Of a DNA stretch of 64,000 bases, positions 10,989 to 32,079 are shown piece by piece. The translations under genes were made by a program, and so were the position numbers. Under the pieces are notes generated by a model that saw only the letters and a program-made list of their open reading frames with translations, was not told the DNA's origin and searched no databases. Position 1 is the stretch's first letter. Each line of letters opens with the position of its first letter. The DNA comes from an uncultured Verrucomicrobiae bacterium (GTDB lineage: Bacteria; Verrucomicrobiota; Verrucomicrobiia; Chthoniobacterales; UBA10450), in contig CAWDLY010000020.1 in NCBI GenBank assembly GCA_963803315.1, positions 136,426 through 200,425 of the forward strand, written 5' to 3'.

Positions 10989-11027
10989 AGCGACACCATC
11001 AGAGACCCCGCGCGGGACAGACGCAAA

Positions 11028-11540: not shown

Positions 11541-12333
11541 TTACCCTGAGATCATCTATCAGTGACTGAGCGTAGTGAAGAAACTCGCGTTTTATCGCGA
11601 ACGAGCGAAATCGGATTACTTCGTAACCCACCGCCCGCCTGGAGAACTCAGGTACGGGCAACTGTTCGGTCATATATTGCGTTCTCCCCACCGCGCCGGT
11701 CATTTTCGCTCCAGTCGCCTGATCCCAGAAGCGCACGAAACTTTGCCCCTGATAACAGCCCCAGCTTTTGATCAGCGCATGCCTGGCAAAAATTCCGCGT
11801 CGCAACTTGCTCTTCAATTCCGATTGGTGCAGCCAGACCTTCGAGGCGCTGCCAACTTCGTTACTGTAATCGAACATGATGCAATCTTGATTGGAATGAC
11901 CGAAATAATCCAAGGAAGCGATCTTGCAGCGCGCGCGATCTTCTCCGCGATCAAGATATGCGCAAAATTGGTCGGCATTATCGAAGTAGATCAATTTCAC
12001 TCCGTATCTCGCAGGGATTGAATCGATGACGGAAAAGAGATTCTTCTTCTCCTGCAACTCGCGCCGCCGATACGAAGGAGCGAAGACGAGCCACGTTATG
12101 CGAGCATCGGCTCCATATTCCTGTTGCAGTTGTTCGATCCGAAGGCGGCTCGCCCGGATGAAATTGAGCCACCAATGATCATGCGGTTGCGGTTTGTCTT
12201 TTTCCCATTCCCATAAAGAAACACCACCGGTAACTACCACGCGCTCGTCGCACGAAATGCTCGCCCCGCTGGCTGCGATTGCCGTCAACCCGGCCAACAT
12301 CAGAGACAACAGCGCCACCAAGGTAAGTTTCAT
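11404..12333 (-). CDS. Hypothetical secreted protein
   Basis: Starts at MKLTLVALLSLMLAGLTAIAA (ATG 12333), 14 nt after the stop of the ABC-2 remnant. ORF-track entry 11404-12648 wrongly fuses the two. The 3' end overlaps the next gene by ~135 nt, so the stop may be mis-set. Confidence 0.5.
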   Translation of the reverse strand: MKLTLVALLSLMLAGLTAIAASGASISCDERVVVTGGVSLWEWEKDKPQPHDHWWLNFIRASRLRIEQLQQEYGADARITWLVFAPSYRRRELQEKKNLFSVIDSIPARYGVKLIYFDNADQFCAYLDRGEDRARCKIASLDYFGHSNQDCIMFDYSNEVGSASKVWLHQSELKSKLRRGIFARHALIKSWGCYQGQSFVRFWDQATGAKMTGAVGRTQYMTEQLPVPEFSRRAVGYEVIRFRSFAIKREFLHYAQSLIDDLRVNETSKMLWSVYCHLPERLFHLQLRYYSHGQHQPVHRRRQSAAADS

Positions 12334-12347
12334 ATCACGCGCACTCT

Positions 12348-12602
12348 TTATCCGATTTTTTTCCGAAAGCGCAAGTGCGCAGACACAGAAAAGCAAAATC
12401 GAGATGCCGATAAGGATGACAAGGTGCTGCCAGTATTCGAATAAGTGTGCGCCGCGCAGGATTATTGCACGCATGAGCGAGATGAAATAGGTGGCGGGCA
12501 AGATTGTGCTCAGGGCGTAGAAAATCGGTGGCATGGTTTCGCGCGGGAATACGAAGCCGGAAAAGAAAACGCTTGGCAACATGAAGACCATCGACATTTG
12601 CA
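12348..12602 (-). pseudogene. Orphan 3' fragment (last ~85 codons) of an ABC-2 permease
   Basis: Encodes LQMSMVFMLPSVFFSGFVFPRETMPPIFYALSTILPATYFISLMRAIILRGAHLFEYWQHLVILIGISILLFCVCAL, identical in protein to the end of the 29481-30605 gene. About 18 nt substitutions are all synonymous. A 1-nt indel lies just before the stop. Confidence 0.85.
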
Positions 12603-12653
12603 GACAAGCGCGACAGCGTTCGCCGCGCGGTTTGCAAGAAATGCTCATGCCGT

Positions 12654-13412
12654 TTACCTGCGCTGCACGTTTATTCTCCAGGTATTGTGGTATTCAAAGA
12701 AGCCACCAAAGGCGGGTTGCGTGTTGATTGCGTCGAGCTTGAGCGTATGCATCCCGGGCGAAAGGGGCCCGTGGACGATGCTGATTCCCTCGAACCAGAT
12801 GATGGCGTCGATCGGCGGGAAATTGACCGGAATCCACGGGCTAAAGACGAACCCGGAGTAGAAGTTCATTACGTTTCCTCGACTGATTACGGTCGCGCCA
12901 TCAATCTTGAAGGTTATGTGCAACGTTCGGAAAACACTCCGGGGAACACGCGGGTCCGCTGGCGTCCCATCGGTGTAATGCGTCCCGAGTAGGACCCAAA
13001 GCGGGAGGACGAAGGCTTGTCCTTTGTAGAGAGTTACGTCGAGATGGCCGGGCGTGCCGTCTCCTGGAGCGTCCGGAAGCGGCATGAGCACAACCCCGGG
13101 AGGAACAACGGCGTTGCCGTTGAGATCAGTCGGAACAGTGATGGCGCCAAAGGCCCAACATTCATAGAGTGCGTTCCAAGCCGCGAGCGTTCGGCCGAGG
13201 AAGAGACAACGTTCGCGCGATTCGCCAAGGTTGTCCGTATTTGCGATGTCGCCTTCAAACGTGACCGCATCCGGCGCGGTGATAAGGATGCCTGGTAATG
13301 CCTGGCCCAAAGCCGACCCGACCAGGCAGGCGAGAAAGGCAGCGAGAAGCAGCCGTGTGTTCGTCTTAAGGCAAAGGATTCGAAACAAGCCGTTTGATTT
13401 ATTGGTATTCAT
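12654..13412 (-). CDS. Secreted hypothetical protein (leader MNTNKSNGLFRILCLKTNTRLLLAAFLACLVGSALGQA)
   Basis: ORF 12654-13541. ATG 13412 is preferred because the neighbouring gene starts with a homologous MNTN leader. No family was recognised. Confidence 0.6.
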   Translation of the reverse strand: MNTNKSNGLFRILCLKTNTRLLLAAFLACLVGSALGQALPGILITAPDAVTFEGDIANTDNLGESRERCLFLGRTLAAWNALYECWAFGAITVPTDLNGNAVVPPGVVLMPLPDAPGDGTPGHLDVTLYKGQAFVLPLWVLLGTHYTDGTPADPRVPRSVFRTLHITFKIDGATVISRGNVMNFYSGFVFSPWIPVNFPPIDAIIWFEGISIVHGPLSPGMHTLKLDAINTQPAFGGFFEYHNTWRINVQRR

Positions 13413-13429
13413 ATTTTGGTTTTCCATTT

Positions 13430-13487
13430 TTGAGTTGGAGCAGTGATCGCTTTCCCTTTCCAACGGTGTGTCGAAGTGGCCGCTACA
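13430..13487 (-). promoter_or_regulatory. Conserved upstream motif L, copy L1 (candidate ECF-type promoter)
   Basis: On the minus strand: TGTAGCGGCCACTTCGACACACCGTTGGAAAGGGAAAGCGATCACTG. It ends ~20 nt before ATG 13412 and shares its core with L2-L5. Confidence 0.5.
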
Positions 13488-13660
13488 AAAGAATTGTAAG
13501 TTTCCTTTCAAGTCACTTCGCGGAATGAGCAGTTCCTTCAATCACAACACGCGAGTGAATCTCGCACGGCTGGTTCGCGTATGATGCGCCGTTTCAGCGC
13601 CGAGCTGCAAACTAGTGTCGCGAAAGTGAAAAAGGGGGACAGGAAGTAACTGTCCTTATT

Positions 13661-13682
13661 TCATGTTCCGTACGGAACATGA
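13661..13682. promoter_or_regulatory. Operator-like perfect palindrome P1 (TCATGTTCCGTACGGAACATGA)
   Basis: The 16-bp core TGTTCCGTACGGAACA lies at 13664-13679. It is one of five copies in the window. Confidence 0.6.
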
Positions 13683-13730
13683 ATCTTATTACTTCTTTCC
13701 TTGGCGCTTCTAGCGCCAGACAGAAATAAC

Positions 13731-13763
13731 GATGCCTCACGATGTTCGACACCGTGAGGCATC
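13731..13763 (-). terminator. Hairpin terminator after the 13785-14388 gene
   Basis: GATGCCTCACG...CGTGAGGCATC stem, followed on the minus strand by GTTATTTCTG. Confidence 0.5.
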
Positions 13764-13784
13764 TGAGTTATCGCCGGACGACTG

Positions 13785-14388
13785 TTACAGCCCTGGCGGC
13801 TGGAATATCACGTGAATGAGCCCGTTGAACGAACCTTCGCTGCGGCCGGTGAGACCGTCTGGTGCAAAGGTGAGTAGCCGATTTACAGTGAAGCTCCCGG
13901 CCGCGCCGGTATAATAACCAGTGCCACCGGTGACGGTGTGAAACTCGATTATTGATTTCACTGTCGCATTCCCGGTGTCACTCATTTGCCCTGTCGTGGT
14001 CGTATAGATACTATCTCCGTTAGCGTCGATGAAACGCGCGCACTGCGGACTCGCTCCGGTCGCGTAGTCGACCAGACCTGCGTAGACGACGCGGAACCGG
14101 CCTAACGGGCTTGCATCGGCGTTACCACCCGCCGCCACAACCAGAATGTATGGATTGATTGCCGACTGCTGGGCGGCGTCGAGCGATTTGGCAGATTGTG
14201 GATAATACTGATAGCTCTCCGCTGCAATCAGGCTTCCCCTGAAACGGATTACGCCTATGGGCAGCGAGTCCGCCCAGGCCGAGCCCACCAGGCAGACCAG
14301 CAAGGAGGCAAGAAGCAACCGCGTCTTCGCTTTGCGAGCAAGAGACGCGGAGCGATTGAAACGAAACGTTTGTTTGATTGGTATTCAT
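13785..14388 (-). pseudogene. Secreted hypothetical protein, leader out of frame with mature part
   Basis: ATG 14388 gives MNTNQTNVSFQSLRVS... The mature frame (LLLASLLVCLVGSAWADS..., ORF 13785-14318) is offset by 1 nt near 14320-14335. Alternatively the TTG at 14318 is the start. Confidence 0.5.
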
Positions 14389-14407
14389 ATATTTTTCTTT
14401 CTGTTTT

Positions 14408-14468
14408 GAGGTTTGAGCGATTGACTCGCTTTCCCTTTCCAACGGCGTTCCGCAGCCGGCGCTACACA
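14408..14468 (-). promoter_or_regulatory. Conserved upstream motif L, copy L2
   Basis: On the minus strand: TGTGTAGCGCCGGCTGCGGAACGCCGTTGGAAAGGGAAAGCGAGTCAATCGCTCAAACC. It ends ~20 nt before ATG 14388. Confidence 0.5.
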
Positions 14469-14512
14469 AAGGTAGTGTTCGCTGATTGTTAGCGGCGCGT
14501 GGCTTCGTCGTT

Positions 14513-14587
14513 GTAGCCGGGATCGGTGATCCCGGGAGTGAGTCCGGCGCCTCTTCCGGAGCGGCCGGGGTCACCGACCCCGGCTAC
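14513..14587. repeat. REPIN-like doublet (GTAGCCGGGATCGGTGATCCCGG ... CCGGGGTCACCGACCCCGGCTAC)
   Basis: Inverted REP-like units with GTAG/CTAC ends in the divergent spacer. Confidence 0.65.
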
Positions 14588-14697
14588 AACTGCGCTCCGC
14601 ACAGAGAAACAACTGGCAATTCACCAACACTACCCTGCGCAGACATTGATTTTTTTTCACGCTTGCCTTCCCGATTGCCTCGCAGCACCCTAACGAA

Positions 14698-15471
14698 GTG
14701 AGTTCCCTGCCGGGCGCTGTCCGTGGCGGGAGCGATGATCCCTTCGCTCCCACCCATTGGAGCGTAATCGCCGCGGCATCGAGAAATGAAATCGAGCCGG
14801 AGCAAGCCCGCGCCGCGCTCGGGCAGCTTTGCGAAGTGTATTGGGCGCCCCTTTACGCGTTCGTCCGCAGTCGCGGCCATTCCGTGCACGATGCGCAGGA
14901 CCTCACGCAAAGTTTTTTCGCTCACCTGATCGAACGCGAAATATATGGCCGGGCTGATCGCGCCAAGGGCCGGTTCCGCTCCTTCCTGCTCGCTGCTTTG
15001 AAAAACTTTCTGGCCGACGCCTATGCGTACGCGCACGCGCTGAAGCGCGGTGGTGCGGAGGATTTTTTACCTCTCGATGAGAGTCGGGCCGAGGCGGCGG
15101 AATCGCTTTTCCAGACGCATTCGAAAACCGGTGAGCCGATCGGAGAAGATCGGCTTTTTGAGAAAAGCTGGGCAGATGCGCTCGTTGCCACCAGTCTGGC
15201 GCGGCTTTTAGCAGAGTATCAAAGCGAAGACAAACAGACGCTCTTTGAGCGATTAAAGATTTTTTTGACCGGAAGCCCGGACCCGCTGCCCAGCTACGAT
15301 CAGCTTTCCATTGAAATGGAAATGCCGGCTTCCAGCATACGCACATACGTTACGCGCTTGCGCCAGCGTTACCGCGAAACTTTGCGCGCTGAGGTCCGCC
15401 AAACAGTCGAGACCGAGGCGGAAGTAGATGAGGAATTGCACGAGCTGTTTCGCGTGCTGTCCGCAACGTGA
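14698..15471 (+). CDS. ECF-type sigma-70 factor of the Ser/Thr-kinase-linked type (ECF43-like)
   Basis: 257 aa with an N-terminal PFAPTHWSVI motif, sigma-2-like LCEVYWAPLYAFVRSRGHSVHDAQDLTQSFF, and sigma-4-like SYDQLSIEMEMPASSIRTYVTRLRQRY. Its stop overlaps the kinase GTG (GTGA). Confidence 0.75.
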   Translation: MSSLPGAVRGGSDDPFAPTHWSVIAAASRNEIEPEQARAALGQLCEVYWAPLYAFVRSRGHSVHDAQDLTQSFFAHLIEREIYGRADRAKGRFRSFLLAALKNFLADAYAYAHALKRGGAEDFLPLDESRAEAAESLFQTHSKTGEPIGEDRLFEKSWADALVATSLARLLAEYQSEDKQTLFERLKIFLTGSPDPLPSYDQLSIEMEMPASSIRTYVTRLRQRYRETLRAEVRQTVETEAEVDEELHELFRVLSAT

Positions 15472-18295
15472 AAGTCCTAACCGTGAAAACGCTCGCTCCC
15501 CGCATCGCGCTTTGTTCGACATGCGGCAGGATGTTGAATGAGAAAGGCGAGTGCATGTCCTGCCTTGTTCGGTTGGGGTTTGATCAGCCGTTACCGGAAT
15601 TGTCTTCCGCAGTCTTCGGCGATTTCGAAATCGTGCGGCGCGAAGATGGCTTATTTTGGGAACTCGGACGCGGCGCGATGGGTGTGACTTATCGCGCCCA
15701 GGACAAGGTGTTGAATCGCACCGTCGCGTTAAAAGTGATCGACCCACCGGCAACAGAAGGCGGCGGGCAGGCGGTGCGGGATCGTTTCTTGCGCGAGGCT
15801 CGCGCCGCGGCGGCCTTTCGCCATCCAAATGTGGCAGGTGTGTTTCACTTCGGCGCCTCGAGCGAAGGCGATCGTTGCTACTATGCCATGGAGCTGGTCG
15901 AGGGCGAAACTCTCGAAGCACTCGTTAGGCGTGATGGTCCGTTAGAAGTCAAAGTCGCGCTCGAAATGACAGTTCAAGTCACGCGCGCGTTAATCGCAGC
16001 GGCAGCGCATGGACTCATCCATCGCGACCTTAAGCCGGGTAACATCATGTTGATCCGAAGCGACGCTTCAGAGCTTGAGGTTAAAGTGATCGATTTCGGT
16101 TTAGCCAAAGCGATTGCGGATGGTGGAAAAGAAATGGACTTGACCAAGGGCGGCTTCATCGGCACGCCTGCTTTCGCCAGCCCCGAGCAATTCAGCGGCG
16201 CAGCCGCCGATGCGCGCTCCGATATCTACTCGTTAGGCGTGACGCTTTGGTATGCGCTCACGGGCGAGGTGCCGTATCAGGGAAAAACTATTGAAGAGAT
16301 TCGCCATCGTCAGAGCGATCTCCCACTGCCAGTACAAAATTTGGTCGCGCGCAAAATCCCGACTCCCGTTATTCAGCTACTGCGTCGAATTCTCGCCGTG
16401 GATCCAACCCAACGACCAGCATCGGCTCGGGATTTTATGGAAGCCCTGGATTCGTGCCGCTCACGTTTGGGGCTTATTCCTTTGCCAAGATCGAAAGTGC
16501 GACAAGCCGTCCGCATGGACTTGCAGCCCTTGCCGCTGCGGTGGCGGTCGGCGCCGTAGGTTTTTTTGCTTTCCGGCCATCGCAGCAGAAACCAACGCCC
16601 GCTATAGCAGCCACCGCGCAAGTAGCACTGCCGCCGGTAGTCATACCTAGGAAGTCGATCGCGGTTCTGCCATTCGAAAATCTTAGCGCGGAGAAGGAGA
16701 ACGCTTTCTTCGCGGATGGAGTGCAAGACGACATCCTTACGGCGTTGTCGAAAATCGCCGACCTCAAAGTCATCAGCCGGACCTCTGTGATCAGTTATCG
16801 CGCAGGGGCCGCGCGCAACTTGCGCGCGATCGCTCAAGAATTGGGTGTCGCCAATATTTTGGAAGGCAGTGTTCGCCGCGCCGGAGGCAAAGTCCGGGTA
16901 ACAACCCAACTGATCAATGCGCAGACCGACGCTCATTTGTGGGCCGATACTTACGATCGGAGTTTGGAAGATGTCTTCGCGATTCAAAGCGACATCGCAT
17001 TACAAGTCGCGGCGCAACTGCAGGCGAAGCTCTCGCCCAGCATCAAGTCCGCCATTGAGGAGCGTCCCACCAGCGATTCGATCGCATATGAGTTTTACAC
17101 GCGGGCTAAATTACTCCGGCAACAACCGATGACGGCGCCAGCTGAACAGTTGGAGGCGATAGCATTGCTTGACCAGGCGGTGAGGCGAGACCCGCAGTTT
17201 CACCTTGCCTATTGCGCATTGGTGTCGTTGCACACGCTGTAATACGCGTACTTTGAACATGTGCCGGCACGACGCGCTTTGGCGGAGCGCGCTCTCGAGG
17301 CGGCAGTCCGTTTGCGGCCGGACGCGGCCGAAACTCATCTTGCTCGAGCGGATTACTATTATCGCTGCGACTTTAATTACGACAAAGCCAGGGCAGAACT
17401 CGCGCTGGCCCAGCGGGAACTTTCTGGCGAACCGCGCTTTTTCATCACCGCAGCCCGGATGGACCGATGTCAAGGCCGCTGGCAGGACGAACCTCGCAAT
17501 TGGGAGAAAGCGCTCGAACTCGATCCTCGGAACATGCAGAGCTATAAGCAGCTCTACGAATCTTACCGGGAGGTGCGGCGCTATCCAGAAGCCGCCGCGG
17601 CTCTGCAGCGCGCAGCGGCCATCGATCCGGCCGCGCCGTGGCCGCGGATATTACGCGGCGACCTCGAACTTCAGTGGCGGGCCAACACCAAGCCTTTGCA
17701 TGAGATTTTCGACGAGTTGATAAAGAAAGATCCAGAGAATATTTGGACCGAAGTGTGGTTCGACCTTGCCCTCTGCGAGCGTGATCCAGATGCGGCTGCC
17801 AGAGCCGCGGCTGAACTGGAGTGCGACCTACGATGGTGTGTGGCTCCGCGAGGGGTGGTTTAAGGGTTTAGCCGCGCGCATCCGCGGCGACGAGACGGCG
17901 GCAAGAATGGCGTTCACCGCGGCTCGTGTGGCAGCCGAAAAGGAGGTAACCGAGCAGCCAGATTACGGTCCTCCATTGTGCGCGCTCGGCCTTATCGACG
18001 CCGCTCTCGGACGGAAAGACGAGCGATCCGGGAAGGTCGGCGCGCCGCAGGAACTTCTCCCGGTAACCAAAAATGCTATCGCCGGCGCAATATATCCAAG
18101 ACATTCCTCGCCCTGATCTACGTCTTCTGCGGGGAGAAGGACCTTGCGATTGAACAACTGCAAACTTCGATGAAATCCTACAACGCCATGTTGTCCTACG
18201 GGGAACTCCGCCTGCATCCGTTCTGGGATCCGTTGCGCGGCGATCCGCGTTTTGAGAAACTCGTCGCCAGCCTTGCGCCCAAGCCGGGTGAGTAA
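15468..18295 (+). pseudogene. Membrane Ser/Thr protein kinase with periplasmic TPR domain (copy 1), at least 4 disruptions
   Basis: Order of parts: Cys4-like N-terminus (CSTCG..CMSC), Hanks kinase (HRDLKPGNIML, DFGLAK, GTPAFASPEQ), a TM segment, then KSIAVLPFENLS... and TPRs. The gene is split over ORFs 15468-16559, 16454-17242, 17261-17863, 17766-18116 and 17978-18295. Confidence 0.75.
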
Positions 18296-18318
18296 GTGCC
18301 CAACCACTACAGCCGCGA

Positions 18319-21216
18319 TCAGAATTTCTTCGTTAGGCTAAAGTAAATAAACCGCCCGGTGGGGTCGTAGAGGTACCTGTGGATAATCATTCACGCTATC
18401 GGGCGGGTCGTGGTCGAACAGATTGGTACAACCAACCGAAACGCGCATGCCATCGAGGATTTGCTTCCAACCCGGGCGGGCGTGGCTACCGCTGATGGAG
18501 GTGAAGTCGTAGGCTGCTTGCAGGTCAAAAAACCAGGTTTGCTTCACCCAGTGTTCTCGGCCGTTAAGGCCGAATTCGTGAAAACCGTCACGATAATTCG
18601 ACTGTGGCGGACAACTCGAAGTCCCGCCAACTCCAATCAAGGCGGGATGTTCCTTTCCATTTTAAATAGGCGTCTTCAGAAAAGAAAACGGTTGGGCTGG
18701 GGCTGCTGCGCAGCTCTTTTTCCTTTTCCCCGGGGACGGAGGAGAATTGAAAGGAATCCAGGAAGGCTCACTTGCGTGACGGAGGTGAAAGTTCCGAAGG
18801 ACGTCTGGAGCTGATACTGGAGGGCGAAATCAACGCCGCGGGCTTTTTGTGTCCCGCTGTTTTGATAGGACTCTGACATCGCCAGAAGGTTTCCGTTGGC
18901 ATCTCTCGTGGCGCTCTCGCCCGGCAGTGGATTTCCGGCCGCAACGCGCGCAAGAACATCTTCCGGATCTGGATTCGGGTTAATCCATCCGGTGGTTTCG
19001 ATGTCGAAAAGATCTACGGTCAGGGTGAGCCCCGGAATGAATTTTGGCGTGTAAACGAACCCTCCGCTGAAAGAACGGGAATCCTCCGGTTGCAGGTTAG
19101 GGTTATTGAGAAACGTCGTTGGAACTTCACTAACCTCTGCGCCCGTGACCGGATCTCTCACGTCCTGGAAGAATAGAACGAGCTCCTTGCTGTGCCGAGG
19201 TTTACCAGTGAAGGTTGTTTGAAACCTTCGCCCCAGGTCGCGCGGAAAGTGAGCGAATCGTCGAACGGCTGCCAGCGCATTCCAAACTTTGGCACCATCA
19301 CATTGCTGCCGTTGTTGAGAAATTCTTCGTAGCGGACCGCGGCGGTAAATTCCAGCGCATGAAACCCGGGTGCGGTGCAGCCGGAGCCGAAAACCGGGAT
19401 ACTCGTTTCGGCATAAGCGGCGTACTCGCTTCGGCTTGCGCGCACAGGGAAAAAGATGCCGGTGCCGAGAAGATCCCCGGCATTTTGCAGGACAGTTGTT
19501 TCCTGGCTGTTCGTCTCGTGTTGAAATTGTCCGCCGAAAGCGAGGCCGACGCCGCCCGCGGGCAATTTGAACAGTTCCGTCGTGTAGATGTTGACGTCGA
19601 CCGTCGTCGCACTACCGCGGTCCGGTTCGCGCTCGTGCAGAAGCACGTAGTCAATAAGCCGGTAATTCGATGCGATCGGTCTGCGATAATCGCCGAATGG
19701 ATTGTAAGGAGTGGTTGTGCCGATGTATTCCGGGGAGCTCGGATCAAAGATCGGATCGGCCGCATTGAGCGTGCGATTGAAACGCGATGGCAGAAGGACC
19801 ATTCCAAATGGTGGTGCTAAGAATGTGGCTGTAACGAAATGCGGCGTCGTAACCCCACGTGCCGTCAAAGAGTTTATCTCCTTTGATTCCGGCGGTGGTG
19901 AAAAATGCATCGACCTTGGTGTCAAACTTCGCGATTTCCCAATTCAAAGGTGCGTCCTCTGCTTCCGCCGGAGATTATTTGTTGAAAGGGATTGAAGGGA
20001 TTGTAAGCGCCGGGAGATACACCAGTTTCCTCATAGGTCGGACCTCCGAGCACCGCCCCGGGCGCATGTGGTGGAATCGCGATGAGCGGAAGCCCTGGCG
20101 ATTGAAAATCGTTAGTATTGGAAGGAGCCAATTCGTTGTGCGTATTGACACGTTGATACAGGAAGTCGGCGTAAATCACCATCTGGTTATCGAAGACTCC
20201 GTGATGCGCGTTTAAGTAGGCGCCGTAACGCTCGGAGTCCGGCAGGGCGCTGGTGAAAATCAACGGCGGGAATAGGACACTGCGTCCTTCCGAATAGGTA
20301 TAGGCCGAGGCCGGAGCAGAACCATTACTGAGAAATGGCGCGTGCCCAAAGAAGGTATCGCCCGACCCTGGAGGTGGATTGCCTCCAGCTGCGATCACTG
20401 CTGCGCGCGACAAGCTCCAGATTAAACGGACTGGCATTCGAACTGAGAATGGTTCGAGGTGTCTGGGTCGCCGAATACGATCGGTCACTGTTGAAAATAG
20501 AGTTCCTGCGGTAGTAATTAAGGACGCCGGTGACATTGGTATTTTCACTGCCGAGTCCGAAGACGAGCGAAGAAGCGAACTCAGTTGAATCTTTGTTCGT
20601 CGTATTTCCAGCCTCGATATTCACTTCTGCATCCGTGTAATTGTGGCGCAACTTAATGTTGATCACGCCGGCCACGGCATCGGCGCCATAGGTGGTCGAA
20701 GCACCGTCTTTCAGGATCTCGATGCTTTCGATTGCGGCTTTCGGAATCGAATTCAAGTCGATGAACAACTGCGAGCCATCGGCCGTCCCACCCGGAAAAG
20801 GCGTTACACGATGTCCATCAATCAAAACAAGTGTCGCTCCCGGATCGAAACCCCGCAACGAGATTGACGAAGCACCCAGCGCGAGAGGACTAGACGCATT
20901 ATTGTTCGCGATCGCGACGCCATTGGCGTTCGCGATCGGCAGATTCTTGATCAACTCCTCGCCGGTGCGTTCTCCGGAGGCGTCGATCACTGTGCGAGTG
21001 ATAACCTGCACCGGGTTCGGCCCCACTTCCGCCGCCGTTGGAATAAGAGAGCCAGTGACCATCACGCGCTCAGCCTCCGCAGTCTTCGAAGCTTCGCTAG
21101 CCGATTCGTCGCCCGGGGTTGGCGTTGCCTGCTGTGCGCTAATCGTCGCGCCTAACGACAGGACAGATCGTTGTCGTGAATGCAAGAGCACAACTCTTGC
21201 GGATTAGATTTTTCAA
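18319..21216 (-). pseudogene. TonB-dependent receptor (copy 1), at least 5-6 frame changes
   Basis: TTG 21216 gives MKNLIRKSCALAFTTTI. This is followed by a plug domain (ISLRGFDPGATLVLIDG, IEILKDGASTTYGADAVAGVINI), barrel fragments in ORFs 20325-21191, 19922-20548, 19158-19925, 18676-19161 and 18338-18640, and a terminal FIYFSLTKKF followed by a stop in yet another frame. Confidence 0.75.
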
Positions 21217-21448
21217 GGTGGGGTCCTTTCATCGCTTGCAAAGCCGTGCGAAAGAAAGCGACCGTGAGCTTGGGGCCAACCCTGCGATCTATTGCCGACG
21301 TTGAGTAACGCTACCTTGGCGGATGCCTCAAACCGATTGCAAGCATCAAATTCGGTAAACATAGACAAGCGAGTTCACACCGCTTTCTTTTAAGAGTTGA
21401 AGCGATGATCGCTCGCCGTTTCCAACGGCATTCGAGAACGAGCGCTAC
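21217..21448 (-). promoter_or_regulatory. Receptor leader including motif L3 (core 21385-21448)
   Basis: Minus-strand TGTAGCGCTCGTTCTCGAATGCCGTTGGAAACGGCGAGCGATCATCGCTTCAACTC plus ~170 nt up to the TTG. It is almost identical to 27555-27786. Confidence 0.55.
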
Positions 21449-21505
21449 ACAAATTGCGATTTTTCTGCGCTTGCCTTTGCGATTGCTTCGCACCAACCTA
21501 ACGAA

Positions 21506-21635
21506 GTGAGTTCCCTGCCGGGCGCGGACGTGGCCGGAGCGATGATCCCTTCGCTCCCACCCATTGGAGCGTGATCGCCGCGTCATCGAGAAATGAAATT
21601 AAGCCGGAGCTGTTCGCGTGCTGTCCGGTACCTGA
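21506..21635 (+). pseudogene. Remnant of the ECF sigma gene (internal ~690-nt deletion)
   Basis: The first ~30 codons (SSLPGA...PFAPTHWSVIAA..RNEI) are fused directly to the last codons (LFACCP..). The junction lies at the shared CCGGAGC microhomology. Compare 14698-15471. Confidence 0.75.
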
Positions 21636-21701
21636 AAGTCCTAACCGTGAAAACGCTCGCTCCCCGCATCGCGCTCTGTTCGACATGCGGCAGGATATTG
21701 A

Positions 21702-24462: not shown

Positions 24463-24534
24463 GCGTTGATCACCGTGACCCTGATCAGAGTTTGTCAACC
24501 GGACTCTTCGATTAAAAGAGGTTCAAACGAAACT

Positions 24535-27500
24535 CTAAAATTTCTTCGTTAGGCTGACATAGACGAAGCGGCCAACGGCGTCGTAAATGAAACCCGGATA
24601 GCCCGTCGAGTTACCGAAGCCCCCGAAAGCTATTGGGTTATCCTGGCCAAATACATTGTTGCAACCAACCGTGATGCTAGTGTTGTTCACCAGGTTCTTC
24701 CAGCACGGCATTGAGTAATTGGCCGTTTGTGAGTGGCTTCGCGACGATCCTTACTGTCCTTAGAGTATCCTGCCACTGGCTGTGACTCCACCGGAGGCGC
24801 GAAAGCGAAGTTGTAGGTTCCCTGCACATCAAAGGTCCAGGTGGCCTTGATCCAATGCTCCTTCTTTTTGTCAGGCAAAAAGTCCGCATCGAAGAGAATT
24901 TCGTGGAAACCACTGATGTAGTTCACGCTCGCGAAGATATCGAAGTTGTTCCAAGTCCAGTCGAGCGACGATCTGCCCTTCCATTTCAGATAACCATCGT
25001 CGGCGGTCGAAGATGAGAAACCCGTCCCTATTCCCGATATTTGTCCGACCGGAGTGCCGCTGACTTCGATCGTTGGATTGCCGGCAGTCAGCTGTAGTCT
25101 GAAGGAATCCAGATATGTCGCCTGCGTCAGCGAAGTAAATGTGCCGAAGGGCGATTGGTATTGATATTGGATTCCAAAATCGACACCACGTGCGCGCGCC
25201 TGGGCGGCGTTTTGGAAGGTAAAGCCGATGAGTGAGATGTTGCCGGCGACGTCACGCTCGACGAACTCACCAGGAAGGAGAGTGCCAGCAGCCTCACGAG
25301 CGAGCACCTGATTGGCATCTGGCGTCGCCACGACACCTGTGCGTTCGATGCTCCAGAGATCGAGCGAGAGAGTCAAACCCGGCACGAATTTGGGCGTAAA
25401 GACCACGCCTGAGCTGAATGAGTGCGAGTCCTCTGGTTGGAGATTCGGATTGCTCGAAAACAGGATATTTGTTTCTGATTCGAAATTTCCCGTGAGAGGA
25501 TCGGTCGTAGGCGTAAGTGCCAGCGGTGGCGCCCGAAAATAGCTCAAAGAGCGACGGTTCGCGGAAGCCTTTACCCCATGTCGCGCGGATGGTTAACGAG
25601 TCGTCAAAGGGCTGCCAGCGCATACCCAGTTTCGGCACCAAAACATTCGTGTCGTTGTTGCGAAACTCTTCGTAGCGGCCCGCCGCATTAAATTCCAAGG
25701 CGCGGAAGCCAGGAATCGCGTTTTCCGGGCTGAAAATCGGAATGGACGTCTCCGCATAGAACGCAAACGTTTTGCGGCCGCCGATCCGTACCGAAGAGGC
25801 CCACGTCGATGATCGATTGATCCACGCTCTGCTCGATGTTTTCACGGCGGAACTGTCCGCCGACGGCAAACCCAACACCGCCCGCCCGGAAGTTTAAACA
25901 GCTGGGTGGTGTAGATGGTCGCGTCGAGGGTTGCCAATTTAGAGGAATCGATCTCCTTGGGATGCCCGAGAACGAAATCCACGAGCGCGGCATTGGAAGG
26001 GATGTCAACCCGATAATCGCCAAATGGATTGTAGGCAGCCGCTCCTTCGAGAACTCCGCCCGGTCCAAAGATCGGGTCGGCCTGATTCAAAACTTGATTA
26101 TAACGCGGGATGGAAACGATCTGTGCCGTAAAAGTCTCCTTGACTTGACTGTAGCGGAACCCGAAATCGTAACCCCAGTTCCCGTCGAATAGTTTGTCAC
26201 CTCTGGCACCGAGGGTGAAGAGTATTGCATCGGTCTCGTCATTAAATAGTCGGTTGCCGAATTCAGCCGCTCGCAAACGGCTGCCGCCCGAAATAATCTG
26301 CCCAAACGGATTGAATGGGTTGAAGGCATTGGCCGGAACTCCGGTCTCCGCGTGGGTTGGTGTGTCAGGTGGTTCAGCGCCGGGCGCGATCGGTGTATTT
26401 GGGGGAATTGCGATCGCGATAAACCCAGCGGTCTGGAAATCTCCAGTGGCTAGCGGCGCCAGTTCGTTATGGGTCTTTACATTTTGATAAAGCATGTCGG
26501 CATAGAGCACTAATTGTTCGCCACAGATCTTGTGCTCGGCGTTCACGTATCCGCCCCACCGTTCCGATTCCGGAAACGAGCTCGAGAAGGCGTTAAAGTT
26601 AAAGAACGAAGTACGCCCGAGCTCGAATAGACATAGTCCGAGGCCGGGCTAAAGCCATTCGTGAAGAACGGCGCATGACCAAAGAATACGGGAAGCGGCA
26701 CACCATTGGCGTCCACAGGGAGAGTCGCCGGATCGACTCCCGCTGCGATGACTACGTCCCTGCTTAACTGCAAATTTGCCGGACTTGAGTTCGTGCTAAG
26801 GAATGGCGGCTTGGAGGAAAGCCCACCACGGTCACGGTTAAAGATCGAGTTGTGATGATAATAGTTAATGACACCGCTGACCTGCGTCGTCTCATCGCCG
26901 ATACCAAACAGGAGGTCGGCCGTGTAAAGGCCACCATCCTTGTCGAGTGTATTGCCATAAGATAGTGTCGCCTCCGCTCCACGGTAATTGTGGCGGAGCT
27001 TGAGGTTGACGACACCAGCAACCGCGTCTGCACCGTAGGTGCTCGAAGCGCCATCCTTCAGAATTTCAATGGAGTCGATCGCCGCCCGTGGGATCGAATT
27101 CAAATCCACGAAGGATGTTGTGCCACCGTTTCCAATCGGATACGGGGCAACACGCCTGCCGTCGACCAAAGTGAGGGTGGCACTGGCATCGAAACCGCGC
27201 AGCGAAACCGAAGAAGCGCCCGAAGTAAAGCCGGTCGCGTTATTCGAAACAGGAACACCATTGGCATTCGCCACCGGGAGATTGCGGATGAGTTCTTCGG
27301 CGTTGCGCTCACCGCGCTTGTTGATCAAATCGCGATTGATGGTCAAAATCGGGTTCGGCCCCACTTCTTCCGCCGTTGGAATGTTGGAACCGGTTACAAT
27401 GACGCGCTGAGCTTCCGCAGTCTCCGAAGCTTCGATTGCCGATTGGTCGCTCGGAGTTGGTGCTGCCTGCTGTGCACTAGTCGTCGTGCCTAACGACAGA

Positions 27501-27554
27501 ACGATCGTCGTAGTGAATGCAAGAGTACAGACCCTTGCGGATTAGATTTTTCAA
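24535..27554 (-). pseudogene. TonB-dependent receptor (copy 2), at least 5 frame changes
   Basis: TTG 27554 gives MKNLIRK. The plug and barrel lie in ORFs 26543-27364, 25842-26546, 25294-25878 and 24687-25547. The C-terminus ...GRFVYVSLTKKF followed by a stop is in another frame. About two-thirds identical to copy 1 by eye. Confidence 0.75.
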
Positions 27555-27786
27555 GGTGGGGTCCTTTCATCGCTTGCAAAGCCGTGCGAAAGAAAGCGAC
27601 CGTGAGCTTGGGGCCAACCCTGCGATCTATTGCCGACGTTGAGTAACGCTACCTTCGCGGATGCCTGAAACCGATTGCAAGCATCAAATTCGGTAAACAT
27701 AGGCAAGCGAGGTCACATCGCTTTCTTCGAAAGTTGAGGCGACGATTGCTCGCCGTTTCCAACGGCATTCCGGATCGGGCGCTACA
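27555..27786 (-). promoter_or_regulatory. Receptor leader including motif L4 (core 27723-27786)
   Basis: The first ~125 nt upstream of the TTG are identical to copy 1. The core is GTAGCGCCCGATCCGGAATGCCGTTGGAAACGGCGAGCAATCGTCGCCTCAAC. Confidence 0.55.
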
Positions 27787-27854
27787 AGAAATCCGTTGGA
27801 ATCAGAATTATCCAAACGGATTGCATCCCCGAGTGCGCTCTTCGCTAATCATGC

Positions 27855-27870
27855 TGTTCCGTACGGAACA
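27855..27870. promoter_or_regulatory. Operator-like palindrome P2 (TGTTCCGTACGGAACA)
   Basis: Perfect 16-bp palindrome ~70 nt upstream of motif L4. Confidence 0.6.
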
Positions 27871-27894
27871 CAATTTTTGAGGCTGGATTGGCCG

Positions 27895-28024
27895 GATGCC
27901 TCAACTCGGTTGCAAACATCAAATTGCGTAAACATACCCGAGCAAAGTCACGCCGCCTTCCTTCAAAAGCTTGAAGCAACCGATCACTCGCGGTTTCCAA
28001 TGGCATTCCAGAACGAGCGCTACA
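27895..28024 (-). promoter_or_regulatory. Orphan third copy of the leader with motif L5 (core 27961-28024)
   Basis: GTAGCGCTCGTTCTGGAATGCCATTGGAAACCGCGAGTGATCGGTTGCTTCAAGC plus a diverged leader start. No gene follows it before L4. Confidence 0.5.
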
Positions 28025-28086
28025 AGAAATCGTTGGAATTATCCAAGCAGATGTATCCGCGAGCACAGCTTTACGCTTAAATATGC

Positions 28087-28102
28087 TGTTCCGTACGGAA
28101 CA
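28087..28102. promoter_or_regulatory. Operator-like palindrome P3 (TGTTCCGTACGGAACA)
   Basis: Lies 50 nt upstream of the PaaX-like start (28152) and ~65 nt upstream of motif L5, in a divergent control region. Confidence 0.6.
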
Positions 28103-28151
28103 CAGTTTTAGACTGGACATTGTGATCGCGGTTTGTCTTGGCTGGCAGGAT

Positions 28152-28922
28152 ATGAACTCCAAAACCGAAGAATTTCTTTATCTGTTGCTCTGGGGAGCCG
28201 AGACCTTAATGCATCCCACCTTCCGCAATTTGCATGAGTCGTATGAAGGGTGGGCCTACCGCACAGGCCTGCTGCCGCAACTTGCAAGACTTGAACGACG
28301 CAAGCTGATCGAGAAAAAGCCGGGAAAGATGGCTCAGCGCATCTATCGCCTCACCGAAACCGGCCGTCTCACCGCCCTGGCGGGTCGCGATCCTGAGGCC
28401 CGCTGGAGCCGTTCCTGGGACGGGCGATGGCGACTCGTTGTATTCGATTTGCCTGAAAGACAGAATGCCGCACGCGTGCGACTCCGGCGTTTCCTGAAGG
28501 AGCGCAATTTCGGTTACCTTCAGAACAGTCTTTGGATCACGCCGGACCCTTTGGATGATAGAGTGGCGAAACTAGGTGCGGGCGGCAAGGACGTCGAATC
28601 GTTCCTGACTCTGGAGGCCCGGCCCTGCTCGGGAGAGAGCGACCGGGCGATTGTCGCGGGAGCGTGGGATTTCAATAAGATCAATCGGCGTTACGAGGAT
28701 TGTCTCTGCTTGCTGAAAAACCACCCGCCGTTTCATCGAATTGCTGCTGCAGGTACGGACAAGCTTTGGCAATGGGCGCGGCGGGAGCGGGTCCTCTGGC
28801 GCGCGGCTATCCAAAGCGATCCGCTTTTGCCATCGGTGCTTCTGCCGAGAGGCTACCGCGGCAAAGAAGTCTGGCGCAAGCGGAACTCGGTGTTACGAAA
28901 AGCCGGGCAACGGTTTAAGTAA
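28152..28922 (+). CDS. PaaX-family transcriptional regulator
   Basis: N-terminal wHTH (LARLERRKLIEKKPGKMAQRIYRLTETG), then the PaaX signature WDGRWRLVVFDLPERQNAARVRLRRFLKERNFGYLQNSLWITPDP. ATG 28152 is preferred because ATG 28083 lies inside palindrome P3. Confidence 0.75.
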   Translation: MNSKTEEFLYLLLWGAETLMHPTFRNLHESYEGWAYRTGLLPQLARLERRKLIEKKPGKMAQRIYRLTETGRLTALAGRDPEARWSRSWDGRWRLVVFDLPERQNAARVRLRRFLKERNFGYLQNSLWITPDPLDDRVAKLGAGGKDVESFLTLEARPCSGESDRAIVAGAWDFNKINRRYEDCLCLLKNHPPFHRIAAAGTDKLWQWARRERVLWRAAIQSDPLLPSVLLPRGYRGKEVWRKRNSVLRKAGQRFK

Positions 28923-28940
28923 TGTTTCAATATTGTATGC

Positions 28941-28956
28941 TGTTCCGTACGGAACA
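28941..28956. promoter_or_regulatory. Operator-like palindrome P4 (TGTTCCGTACGGAACA)
   Basis: Lies 19 nt after the PaaX-like stop and is followed by A6C5T9. Confidence 0.5.
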
Positions 28957-29255
28957 GTGAAAAAACCCCCTTTTTTTTTAGCGACCGAAGGGTTTTATTC
29001 GGCGGCTAATTCGCGCAAGGCTGGTTGGTTTAGAGAAGCTACCCGGCTCGTTAGGCGAAAATTGTGGTCTAAGTGAAGCGGTCCATGCGAAGCTTGGCGA
29101 AATTTTGCCCGCTCTGCGCCCGGGGCGCATGAGCGCAAAAGGCTCTGAGGCAGGTCGGTGCTCCTTGCCGCTTAGCGCTGTCCTTCTGAGATAAGCTAGC
29201 TAGTGGTTTCACAAATAAAGTTTCTGCAATTCTTCGCTTGTTCTGAAGGCGCGCT

Positions 29256-29285
29256 AAAACGTTGTTCCGTACGGAACAACGTTTT
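29256..29285. promoter_or_regulatory. Operator-like palindrome P5, extended to 30 nt (AAAACGTTGTTCCGTACGGAACAACGTTTT)
   Basis: Perfect 30-nt palindrome containing the same 16-bp core (29263-29278). It could also act as a bidirectional hairpin terminator. Confidence 0.5.
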
Positions 29286-29480
29286 GCACATGCGATAGAG
29301 GGACCCACTCGTTCTTCCCCTTGTAGGCTGGTGGCGCTAATCTGGGGACTTTTGCCGGACATTGGCGCGGGAGAAGTTTGACGTGAGTTGAAAGAACTTC
29401 CCAGTCACACCAATAGGTCACACCGCTTCTTTCAACGTTTGAGAACAATGATCGACCACGAGGAGATTGCCCATCGCGAG

Positions 29481-30605
29481 TCACCCGATCTTTTTTCGGA
29501 ATCGCAGCGCGCAGACGCAGAAAAGCAAAATCGATATGCCGATAAGGATGACGAGGTGCTGCCAGTATTCGAATAAGTGTGCGCCGCGTAAGATGATCGC
29601 GCGCATGAGGGAAATGAAATAGGTCGCAGGCAGAATCGTGCTCAGGGCGTAGAAAATCGGCGGCATGGTTTCGCGCGGGAAGACGAAGCCGGAAAAGAAA
29701 ACGCTCGGCAACATGAAGACCATCGACATTTGCAAGGCCTGCATTTGGTTCTCGGCTTTGGTGGCGACGAGCAGGCCGAGACTGAGCAATGCGAATACGT
29801 AAACGAGCGTCGCGAACATCATCGCGATCACGCTTCCGTTAATCGGCACGCCAAACAGGAATCGCATGATCAGAAACAGGATCACGGCCATCATCATGCC
29901 GATGCAGAGATAGGGAACGAGTTTGCCGAGCATAAGTCCCCAACGGCTGAGTGGACTAACGAGTAATGTCTCGAGCGTTCCTTTCTCGCGTTCGCGCACG
30001 ACGGCCATGGCGGTGGCGAAGGTGGTGCCGATTTGCAGGACGATGCCGATCACGCCCGGGATGTAGAAGTTCGGGCTTTTCATCGCCGGGTTGTAAAGCA
30101 TTTGCGGGCGGATCTCGATCGGCACATCGCGTCTTCCGCTTTCGCGCAGGAGCGTTTCGATCGATTGCGTGAGACCGACGGCAAGCGCGGTGTTGAGCGC
30201 TTGGAGCGCAGTTGTGGAATTCGAACCGTCGATGAGCAATTGCACCTGAGCGGGATTTCCAGCACGCACATCGCGCGTGAAGGTCGGCGGAATCTCGAGT
30301 CCGACATAGGCGCGACCACCGCGAATCGCGCTTGCCAGTTCGTCGATGCTTCGCACTTCGCCGACGACGCGAAATGTTTCGGTGTTCACGAATCGATCGA
30401 TGAACTGCCGGCTCTCGACCGTGCGATCTTCGTTCAGGATCATCATCGCCATGTGTTTCACATCGGTGTCGAGCGCGTAACCGAACGCGATCATTTCCAC
30501 GAGGGGCGGGAAGAACATGAAGAACAACGTCATCGGATCGCGCCAGACGATGATGAATTCCTTGAACAAAATGGCGCTGAGGCCGCGGAAGGGAACGTGT
30601 TTCAT
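29481..30605 (-). CDS. ABC-2 type transporter permease (YbhS/YbhR-like)
   Basis: 374 aa with 6 TM segments and an ABC-2 membrane domain. It lies downstream of the ABC ATPase and the HlyD-like gene. Confidence 0.85.
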   Translation of the reverse strand: MKHVPFRGLSAILFKEFIIVWRDPMTLFFMFFPPLVEMIAFGYALDTDVKHMAMMILNEDRTVESRQFIDRFVNTETFRVVGEVRSIDELASAIRGGRAYVGLEIPPTFTRDVRAGNPAQVQLLIDGSNSTTALQALNTALAVGLTQSIETLLRESGRRDVPIEIRPQMLYNPAMKSPNFYIPGVIGIVLQIGTTFATAMAVVREREKGTLETLLVSPLSRWGLMLGKLVPYLCIGMMMAVILFLIMRFLFGVPINGSVIAMMFATLVYVFALLSLGLLVATKAENQMQALQMSMVFMLPSVFFSGFVFPRETMPPIFYALSTILPATYFISLMRAIILRGAHLFEYWQHLVILIGISILLFCVCALRFRKKIG

Positions 30606-30625
30606 AGGAGGGCACTCTCCATATC

Positions 30626-30997: not shown

Positions 30998-31003
30998 TTT
31001 TGA

Positions 31004-31972: not shown

Positions 31973-32079
31973 CTCGAGCGAAGCGGAACGAAGTGGAGCG
32001 CAGTCGAGAGATCTCTCATCGTTGTCGGAAAACTGGGTGGATCCACAGTAAGAGATTCCTGGACTTCGCTCGGAATGAC
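31968..32079. repeat. Palindromic MITE-like repeat (family B)
   Basis: GTCATCTCGAGCGAAGCGGAACGAAGTGGAGCGCAGTCGAGAGATCTCTC ... GAGATTCCTGGACTTCGCTCGGAATGAC, between the HlyD-like and ATPase genes. Confidence 0.8.

Follow-up and report, generated by a model that had tools for sequence, protein, structure and literature searches.

A permease-tail repeat behind a conserved ABC exporter operon as the probable scar of inter-lineage recombination in a Udaeobacter-like soil bacterium

The window analysed here, a 64,000-nt stretch of DNA, belongs to a Chthoniobacterales (Candidatus Udaeobacter-like) soil MAG and carries an ABC exporter operon, a block of accessory genes (X), and an orphan copy of the 3′ end of the operon's last gene. 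We consider it probable that the locus is a recent recombinant of two alleles from related lineages, one with the island and one without it, produced by an event of the homology-facilitated illegitimate recombination (HFIR) type with one homologous and one illegitimate end. The orphan is best explained as an ordinary, non-functional scar of recombination, with no new mobile element or molecular system. The features on which this reading draws are as follows.

9987..10988, minus strand: M28 peptidase, the permease's ancestral neighbour in most relatives
10050..33650: tract divergent from relative L091 (sliding-window identity)
11404..12333, minus strand: dn309, secreted hypothetical protein of 309 aa (89 homologues covering ~73% of the query)
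11404..12648, minus strand: 414-aa ORF, orphan fused to dn309 through a +1 insertion; probably not meaningful
12334-12347, minus strand: 14-nt spacer between orphan and dn309 (sequence)
12348..12602, minus strand: orphan repeat copy, 84 codons and TAA, with an extra T at ~12374/12375 (alignment, repeat search, seven orthologues)
12600..12602, minus strand: illegitimate junction with 3-nt microhomology TGC (three-way comparison of window, L089 and permease)
12600..14453, minus strand: distal sub-block with unk177 (13785-14318) and unk295 (12654-13541), 95.6% identical to L089
12603..29480: accessory block X between the repeats, without mobility genes, its parts differing in history
14640..21460: module A, with an ECF-type sigma factor (14698-15471), a Ser/Thr kinase (15468-16559) and TPR pieces (Pfam, NCBIfam, repeats)
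18676-21191: convergent TonB-dependent receptor of module A, split into at least four ORFs (Pfam, NCBIfam)
21448..27795: module B, tandem repeat of module A from which the sigma gene has been deleted (Pfam, repeats)
21702-22841, 22564-24462 and 24687-27364: kinase, TPR and split TonB receptor of module B (Pfam)
27796..29468: sub-block specific to the window relative to L001, with unk94, a PaaX-like regulator (28083-28922; Pfam PaaX_M) and unk97
29481..29734, minus strand: resident repeat copy, last 84 codons and stop (alignment, repeat search)
29481..30605, minus strand: full-length resident ABC-2 permease, 374 aa (Pfam ABC2_membrane_3, E=1.9e-53)
30628..30957, minus strand: GIY-YIG nuclease-domain gene, 109 aa, between ATPase and permease (Pfam, E=5e-16)

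The permease is the last gene of an operon in the order HlyD, ABC-ATPase, (GIY-YIG), permease, whose neighbours are kept in the 80 relatives of the main comparison (93 loci were examined altogether); the GIY-YIG gene is sporadic, being found in 12 of the 80 loci as well as in L091 and L092, and is cleanly missing in L093. The last 84 codons and stop of this permease (29481-29734) recur at 12348-12602 as a 255-nt tail in the same orientation, both copies lying on the minus strand. Local alignment on that strand matched 12352-12602 to 29485-29734 over 251 nt at ~90% identity with one 1-nt gap and a longest exact run of ~35 nt, and a repeat search of the window returned the pair as family D4 (12374-12602 and 29506-29734, 92% identical ungapped); a direct repeat of this kind cannot be chance. 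In translation, 77 aa are identical as far as the indel, and once the extra T is removed the 84 codons and stop of both copies give one peptide, LQMSMVF...CVCALRFRKKIG*. Alignment, repeat search and translation thus confirmed the same-orientation orphan with a 1-nt indel reported in a preliminary description of this DNA, which had also correctly placed the orphan 14 nt from the ATG at 12333 (its stop, TAA, lies at 12348-12350). The same description had counted about 18 substitutions over a ~215-nt core, all of them synonymous: the synonymous-only character held, while the number was an undercount.

Between the orphan and resident tails we found 25 synonymous and 0 nonsynonymous differences (Nei-Gojobori; S=58.2, N=193.8), giving dS=0.64 and dN=0, and the 7-11 substitutions private to the orphan are every one synonymous. 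These counts support the earlier suggestion that both copies had been under selection in different backgrounds before they were joined; they mean that both tails evolved within functional genes of different lineages and came together later. As a random change would be nonsynonymous in ~77% of cases (N=194 vs S=58), the orphan left its functional gene only recently; a neutral orphan as old as the divergence implies should have accumulated tens of nonsynonymous changes, and none is seen. A recent intragenomic tandem duplication was rejected, as the copies differ at 10% of sites with a dS of 0.64 where near-identity is expected, and as the native permease spacer and dn309 come after the orphan rather than X a second time.

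The extra T at ~12374/12375, which only the orphan has among seven aligned orthologues, places the orphan in frame with dn309 to form the single 414-aa ORF (11404-12648), a feature missed in the preliminary description. It could be supposed that selection keeps the orphan because it supplies a new chimeric protein with an N-terminal membrane anchor, in keeping with this in-frame fusion and with the lack of nonsynonymous changes, but we regard this as extremely unlikely. The same permease segment is equally invariant in orthologues, the L002 permease having the same 84 aa despite 23-29 synonymous differences, so descent from a functional permease accounts for the pattern. Moreover, the fusion would bury the signal peptide of dn309, the insertion occurs in the window contig alone while assemblies of this clade are rich in indels, and a corresponding fusion in L091, whose contig is rich in errors, goes back to another indel. 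The 414-aa ORF is probably not meaningful, and in annotation it should not be read as a true ABC-2 family protein.

The 5′ edge of the orphan is an illegitimate junction. A three-way comparison places island sequence above 12602 and permease sequence below it, with homology to L089 stopping at 12600; the trinucleotide TGC is common to the island end, as present in L089, and to the permease (codons L-Q), and the junction joins sequence 50 nt downstream of unk295 to permease codon 291. The preliminary description had seen here the architecture of an element integrating at a gene's 3′ end, an interpretation at odds with an edge made of TGC microhomology with no att-like core. To the left of the junction the window is 95.6% identical to L089, and to the right its identity is 92.8% and 92.7% with L091 vs 88.7% and 83.5% with L089, which shows different nearest relatives on the two sides.

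Such a change of affinity could also arise from an assembly chimera at 12602/12603 that combined reads of X-bearing and X-less strains from one soil. The relatives come from long-read soil metagenomes, several samples of which each gave two or more related lineages, and frameshifts split many of the long genes of X. We nevertheless consider a chimera very unlikely, because just 3 nt are common at the junction, leaving nothing to mislead an assembler, and because the scars in L089 and L046 described below come from independent assemblies. It counts against the recombinant reading that the contig itself is a metagenome assembly with many split genes. Somewhat less improbable, though still unlikely, is that the orphan is what is left of a second, xenologous ABC operon, formerly situated between X and dn309, whose remainder was lost to a deletion running from the X end into its permease. 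One relative's contig (L044 and L064) does carry two divergent operon copies, 78-86% identical at the nucleotide level, with M28 peptidase and a hydrolase, and the junction observed could not be told apart from a deletion endpoint at 3 nt of microhomology. This history, however, requires two events, an acquisition and a deletion, both recent enough to leave 0 nonsynonymous changes, and tandem operons at this position were found in 0 of the 93 loci examined.

The relatives also show the locus in other states. X is absent in L091, L092, L002 and most of the 80 relatives, consistent with the earlier view that everything between the repeats is accessory, and the empty site that the preliminary description had proposed to look for, with the permease directly followed by the gene at 12333, is present in L091, where the same spacer and dn309 come right after a full-length permease. 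The contig of L090 starts with the last 43 nt of a permease gene, again followed by this spacer and dn309, whose family is ~235-255 aa long, with the window copy longer. In L002, L092 and most other relatives the permease is followed by the M28 peptidase, so that dn309, earlier taken for the original operon continuation, gives way to this peptidase as the deeper ancestral neighbour.

Within X, modules A and B are spaced 6.16-6.34 kb apart and are 74-97% identical. L001, whose permease is 92% identical to that of the window at the nucleotide level, has the TonB-receptor/TPR/kinase module right after the permease stop; module B is 86% identical to this module, and the sub-block 27796-29468 is missing in L001 between its positions 11136 and 11217. 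L001 shares only the permease-proximal part of X and L089 only the distal part: in the latter, the distal genes and dn309 are accompanied by just ~35 nt of permease 3′-end remnant at the same end of X, and the sub-block 12600-14453 stands out at 95.6% from flanking DNA that is only ~86% identical. Together these loci show X to be older than the orphan, as L001 has the permease-to-receptor junction and L089 the distal genes, and they speak against the proposal that the 17 kb arrived as one element bringing a replacement 3′ end, given that X and the repeats do not form one unit and that L001 and L089 hold different parts of it. Smaller scars of the same kind recur in L089 (~35 nt) and in L046 (~50 nt), where a 651-nt non-coding insert is bracketed by the last ~50 nt of the permease. 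Identity to L091 is 87-95% in 10050-33650 and 97-100% outside it (33700-38349 and 8560-10050), and in a sliding window it alternates between blocks of 98-100% and blocks of ~91%; from this mosaic, recombination between lineages is evident.

We weighed these data against the possibility that X is, or descends from, a discrete element that inserted site-specifically at the permease 3′ end, carried a replacement end, and has since lost its integrase. Integrative islands insert at the 3′ ends of genes, classically tRNA or tmRNA genes, restore the gene, and leave att direct repeats. The window resembles them in that two direct copies, one within an intact gene and the other an orphan 3′ end, enclose the cargo, and in that relatives have an empty site (L091; in L002, L092 and many others the permease is followed by M28). 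In the window and in L089 alike the X end (...GTCTGC) borders on permease sequence, though not at the same permease position, and L046 offers a third bracketed insert, although its 651 nt are non-coding. The target, however, is protein-coding, and no recombinase, transposase, integrase, excisionase or phage gene was found among the ~40 ORFs of 7.8-34.4 kb by Pfam, with unknown ORFs also searched against PHROGs and NCBIfam, so that the earlier remark that no integrase or transposase is visible stands for X and its surroundings alike. The repeats, 255 nt long and 10% diverged, show no identical core that stands out, microhomology at the junction amounts to 3 nt, and the boundaries are not constant (the L089 remnant is ~35 nt vs 255 nt). 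The cargo, which is older than the repeat, is pieced together from native-type genes, combining a tandem duplication, the window-specific PaaX sub-block and the 95.6% sub-block. A composition check proposed in the preliminary description did not set X apart from the host: the GC content of X is 55.7% vs 55.2% in the flanks, and its tetranucleotide correlation of 0.946 is only marginally below the 0.961-0.984 of other 17-kb segments, a comparison confounded by the internal duplication. A discrete element is accordingly given a very low probability. Campbell-type single crossover of a circular molecule would similarly leave a full gene, an insert and a truncated copy starting at the fragment boundary; it requires, however, a circular molecule of repeat and X, with crossing-over inside a 255-nt stretch of only 90% identity (longest exact run ~35 nt), and it leaves the greater age of X relative to the orphan unexplained.

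The recombinant origin that we favour would start from two alleles of a hypervariable locus, one with the permease followed by X (L001- and L089-like) and the other with the permease directly followed by dn309 (L091-like). DNA of one Udaeobacter-like lineage would enter the other and recombine homologously at one side, while the other side would be joined illegitimately at TGC, linking the X end to permease codon 291; no integrase would be required for this joining. HFIR joins at 3-10 bp microhomologies, according to the summary in PMC6382021 of de Vries & Wackernagel 2002, Prudhomme et al. 2002 and Meier & Wackernagel 2003, and its products are described there from the naturally transformable Acinetobacter baylyi, Streptococcus pneumoniae and Pseudomonas stutzeri. 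The window matches this pattern in that one side lies in homologous sequence and the other at a microhomology of this size (TGC), the sides derive from different related genomes (L089 to the left, L091 to the right; dS 0.64 and dN 0 between the two permease ends), the donor is a diverged relative, mobility genes are not involved, and a partial gene copy remains at the illegitimate end. Homologous anchors are at hand beside the joint in the conserved operon, dn309 and M28 sequences. The window differs from the experimental cases in that it is reconstructed by comparative genomics of uncultured Verrucomicrobiota and in that its tract may reach ~20 kb; experimental HFIR cases have smaller tracts.

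We infer both the mode of DNA entry and the direction of the event. We slightly favour a history in which a genome with X received the permease 3′ end, dn309 and following sequence from a relative lacking X, in which case the import would have replaced an older short remnant and a 3.2-kb L089-like block; the opposite course, with permease and X arriving in a genome that had no X, is almost equally likely. Both event and direction are a reconstruction, none of the relatives being near-identical as donor or recipient. One observation runs against HFIR: the X-side breakpoints of the window and L089 lie no more than 4 nt apart while the permease-side breakpoints differ by ~190-220 nt, a pattern that would need anchoring by an older remnant or a shared older junction.

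There is also a small chance, comparable to that of a discrete element, that the site downstream of the permease is a non-random hotspot for cargo exchange. In one version the GIY-YIG protein would make breaks like a free-standing homing endonuclease, which would be repaired from foreign alleles with repeated co-import of a replacement permease 3′ end and downstream cargo; in the other, a defined right end of X (...GTCTGC) would be joined to varying permease positions. If either version were true, the locus would represent a recombinase-independent "integration with 3′-end replacement", with the tails in the window (255 nt), L089 (~35 nt) and L046 (~50 nt) as its scars.

On the recombinant reading, the locus provides a worked example of how a purely synonymous orphan fragment dates and localises a recent inter-lineage exchange. 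In the soil clade concerned, the abundant but uncultured Udaeobacter-like Verrucomicrobiota, homologous together with illegitimate recombination would shuffle accessory genes at a hotspot downstream of a conserved ABC exporter operon, without mobile-element machinery.

Read along the permease direction, the locus comprises the following genes, assigned with Pfam and NCBIfam. We denote by X the ~17-kb accessory block (12603-29480) between the resident permease and the orphan copy of its 3′ end; unk numbers mark unnamed ORFs of X.

Genes of the locus in order along the permease direction
32187-33071, minus strand: HlyD-type adaptor
31004-31972, minus strand: ABC ATPase
30628-30957, minus strand: GIY-YIG protein, 109 aa, directly before the permease
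29481-30605, minus strand: ABC-2 permease, 374 aa (Pfam ABC2_membrane_3, E=2e-53)
27796-29362: unk97, PaaX-like regulator and unk94, following the permease
21448-27795: module B, with split TonB-dependent receptor, TPR protein and Ser/Thr kinase; sigma gene deleted
14640-21460: module A, with split TonB receptor, TPR protein, kinase and ECF-type sigma factor
After module A: unk177, unk295, then the orphan
11404-12333: dn309, the gene after the orphan
11028-11540: 170-aa ORF
9987-10988: M28 peptidase, then alpha/beta hydrolase, AhpC and DUF488

The last 251-255 nt of the permease gene recur in the same orientation at 12348-12602, aligning at ~90% identity with one 1-nt gap; an independent repeat finder returned the ungapped part (12374-12602 against 29506-29734) at 92%, and together these confirm the repeat coordinates of the preliminary description. 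The orphan and resident peptides are identical over 77 aa, and without an extra T (~12374/12375) in the orphan the match covers all 84 codons and the stop. This extra T is unique to the orphan, being absent from all six other aligned sequences, and it links the reading frames of the orphan and the next gene into a 414-aa ORF (11404-12648), a fusion that had been overlooked. A functional fusion protein is nevertheless an unlikely reading of this ORF: the insertion occurs on this contig alone, indels are common in these assemblies, and in the relative L091 another indel creates the fusion. The product of dn309 is 309 aa long in the window against 234-255 aa in 88 homologues (family P0001-P0089); a ~28-nt gap relative to L091 at ~11.55-11.85 kb lengthens its frame into an overlap with the 170-aa ORF, and the dn309 gene of this genome may be damaged as well. 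A metagenome scan with dn309 returned only homologues at 62-66% identity in unrelated contexts, and exact-sequence queries with the permease, dn309, the 414-aa ORF and the 100%-identical cluster representatives P0090 and P0210 matched no recorded protein.

Nei-Gojobori comparison of orphan and resident gave 25 synonymous and no nonsynonymous differences (dS 0.64), so that the earlier observation of purely synonymous change stands, with a substitution count that was too low. Substitutions private to the orphan number 7-11, every one of them synonymous. With 194 sites counted as nonsynonymous and 58 as synonymous, even neutral change at 0.15 per site predicts ~30 nonsynonymous changes in the orphan, where none was observed, and the private changes would all be synonymous with a probability below 1e-4 if synonymous changes make up 23% of random ones. 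Because nonsynonymous changes are absent and the private changes all synonymous, the orphan must have belonged to a functional permease gene up to a very recent time. The 84-codon segment is under very strong conservation in any case: the L002 gene differs at 23-29 synonymous positions and still specifies the same 84 aa, and since the segment is equally invariant there, special selection on the orphan is not needed to explain the pattern. Tandem duplication and gene conversion were both rejected as origins of the orphan on the basis of its divergence and context. A search for the relative whose permease 3′ end is nearest to the orphan named no donor, because the five sequences form a star with pairwise identities of 88-91%.

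A permease search of species-representative genomes recovered 337 relatives, the best of which are all soil MAGs, many of them long-read, from Verrucomicrobiota, Chthoniobacterales or Candidatus Udaeobacter. The order g230, g198, DUF2127, glyoxalase, HlyD, ATPase, permease, M28, hydrolase, AhpC, DUF488 is conserved in 80 relatives, and the interval 3′ of the permease is hypervariable among them, many having no insert and others differing inserts of 0.6-3.5 kb. M28 directly follows the permease in L002 and L092. In L091, whose upstream flank is 98-100% identical to the window, the permease is full length and leads through the same spacer into dn309, and the 17-kb block is absent; L091 provides the empty site that the preliminary description had predicted, and these three loci bear out its view of the block as accessory. 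L090, a 1.6-kb contig, begins within the last 43 nt of a permease gene and then carries the same spacer, dn309, the 170-aa ORF and M28. There are at least three arrangements lacking X, in which the permease is followed by M28, by dn309, or by a hydrolase, fatty-acid hydroxylase and LysR block.

Parts of X are found in two relatives. In L001, the closest species representative (permease 92.4% identical at the nucleotide level), a receptor/TPR/kinase module with 86-89% identity to the window lies right after the permease stop, without a counterpart of window 27793-29468, and the contig stops inside the module. L089, from a 320-kb contig (ERZ25039533 contig_34724), carries kinase, sigma, unk177-like and unk295-like genes, then a 3.2-kb block (hydrolase, fatty-acid hydroxylase, 151-aa ORF and LysR), dn309, a 175-aa ORF and M28. 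Directly after the same X end, L089 holds at ~6818-6852 the last 32-35 nt of a permease gene including the stop (local alignment score 44; 300 shuffles gave at most 30), followed by the hydrolase gene, whose orthologue (81.5% identical) lies directly after a full-length permease in L093 (11092-11767). Because L001 has the permease-proximal junction of X and L089 its distal end, X or its core predates the 8-14% nucleotide divergence of the alleles, and X is thus older than the orphan. Arrival of the 17 kb as a single integrating element, as had been proposed, is contradicted by this relative age and by the sharing of separate parts of X with L001 and L089. An older, decayed version of the full repeat at the end of X was considered and rejected, only the last 32 nt being significant in L089; window 12603-12760 has no significant similarity to an older permease repeat copy.

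The window reads ...GAACGCTGTCGCGCTTGTC-TGC-AAATGTCGATGG... at the joint between X and the orphan, L089 reads ...GAACGCTGTCGTGTTCGTC-TGC-GCGCATCTC... at the same place, and the permease reads ...ATGCAGGCCT-TGC-AAATGTCGATGG... at the corresponding position. The window matches L089 up to TGC and the permease from TGC on, with a 3-nt microhomology 50 nt downstream of the unk295 stop, which is an illegitimate recombination junction and not an att core. An assembly chimera, in which the two sides were joined artificially, is unlikely given that only these 3 nt are common to both sides.

Identity of window segments near the joint to L089 and L091
12600-14453 (left of the joint): L089 95.6%; not in L091
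14653-17031 (next X segment): L089 86.5%; not in L091
dn309 (right of the joint): L089 88.7%; L091 92.8%
170-aa ORF and M28: L089 83.5%; L091 92.7%

Because the nearest relatives differ across the joint, the window is best read as a recombinant of L089-type (X-bearing) and L091-type (X-less) alleles joined at TGC, in line with the earlier suggestion that the two permease copies come from two lineages. Identity to L091 is 98-100% from 38349 to ~33700 and 87-95% across the operon, then 88-95% between the orphan and ~10100, 97-99% at 10050-8560, and 74-90% below 8550. The switches at ~33650, ~10050 and ~8550 are sharp, one lying inside the glyoxalase gene and one at the M28/hydrolase boundary. 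Such switches point to allele replacement through homologous recombination between lineages, and exchange of this kind is evidently frequent at the locus.

The layout and the empty site would also fit a true integrative element at the permease 3′ end, but every other defining feature of such an element is missing. No ORF of X matched integrase, transposase or phage families in Pfam or, for the unknown ORFs, in PHROGs or NCBIfam. In the composition check suggested in the preliminary description, GC is like that of the flanks (55.7% inside X, 55.2% outside), and the tetranucleotide correlation of X with the rest of the window (0.946) is the lowest among 17-kb segments (others 0.961-0.984), only a slight difference to which the internal duplication contributes. 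A tRNA was ruled out as insertion target, the sole one (Gly, 35860-35930) lying outside the region.

Modules A and B of X are diverged tandem copies of one unit, 74-97% identical at a period of 6.16-6.34 kb; module B lacks ~645 nt of the sigma gene through deletion. All of their long genes are broken by frameshifts or stops into 2-5 ORFs, unlike the long genes in the remainder of the window, which are intact. The L001 TonB-receptor copy is likewise split, and the indels lie outside homopolymers; the split genes are either pseudogenes or the result of locally poor consensus. Between window 12600-14453 and L089 4948-6796, 10 of 11 indel events fall within 13773-14425 (unk177 and just upstream), none of them in homopolymers, and because of this clustering the frame of unk177 cannot be trusted in at least one of the two assemblies. 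A leader-like element of 64-140 nt containing GTTTCCAACGG is repeated at 21320-21458, 27658-27795, 27893-28033 and 13433-13496, that is, 5′ of both TonB receptor genes, 5′ of the PaaX region and near unk295, and could be a common ECF-dependent promoter or leader.

The orphan is most simply explained by two crossovers, one homologous and the other illegitimate, that joined DNA from two related lineages. Homology-facilitated illegitimate recombination joins DNA at 3-10 bp microhomologies (PMC6382021), and the window joint at the 3-nt TGC resembles such a product. In one direction, the permease 3′ end, the spacer, dn309 and what follows would have passed from an X-less relative into an X-bearing L089-type genome, anchored in dn309/M28 and possibly also in the older short remnant, with replacement of the remnant and the 3.2-kb block. 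In the other, the operon and X would have entered an X-less genome, with the anchor in the operon and the far end joined inside the recipient's permease, which fits the layout first described, minus the integrase. We slightly prefer the former because the X-side breakpoint of the window lies only 4 nt from the X/remnant junction of L089. The X-side breakpoints of the two nearly coincide and the permease-side ones differ, a detail that this account leaves unexplained. Deletion of a second operon copy could possibly have left the orphan instead, since one contig can carry two divergent copies, as seen for L044 and L064, but this route needs more steps than the two crossovers. The L044 and L064 copies (71-86% nucleotide identity) lie ~32-53 kb apart in opposite orientation on scaffold JBEEHV010000020.1 and span the whole glyoxalase/HlyD/ATPase/permease/M28/hydrolase locus; the second copy is either genuine and xenologous or the product of a chimeric scaffold.

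The GIY-YIG nuclease-domain gene of the ATPase-permease intergenic region occurs in only 12 of the 80 relatives, plus L091 and L092 (in all L001, L003, L012, L016, L018, L021, L029, L041, L051, L052, L067, L080, L091 and L092). Truncated remnants are found in L018, L051 and L029, the gene lies between HlyD and ATPase in L003, and it is cleanly missing (290 nt) from L093. This patchy, decaying, site-specific distribution resembles that of a free-standing homing-endonuclease gene, and the predicted nuclease might contribute to the recombination hotspot.

At the protein level, no second permease fragment was seen in 80 loci; at the nucleotide level, the other loci yielded only L046 and two 16-nt matches regarded as chance. 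In L046 (11126-11819), a 651-nt non-coding insert after the permease stop is followed by a ~50-nt copy of the permease end (E=4e-8, one nonsynonymous change), a terminator-like hairpin, and DNA that directly follows the permease in L043 (11142-11850), making it an independent small case of an insert bracketed by ~50-nt direct repeats of the permease end. The orphan is a further example of an established type of recombination scar. As L089 and L046 also carry remnants, insertions here repeatedly leave a partial duplicate of the permease end, as would be expected if the conserved operon provides the homology for anchoring and the illegitimate end in some cases lands within the permease of the recipient.
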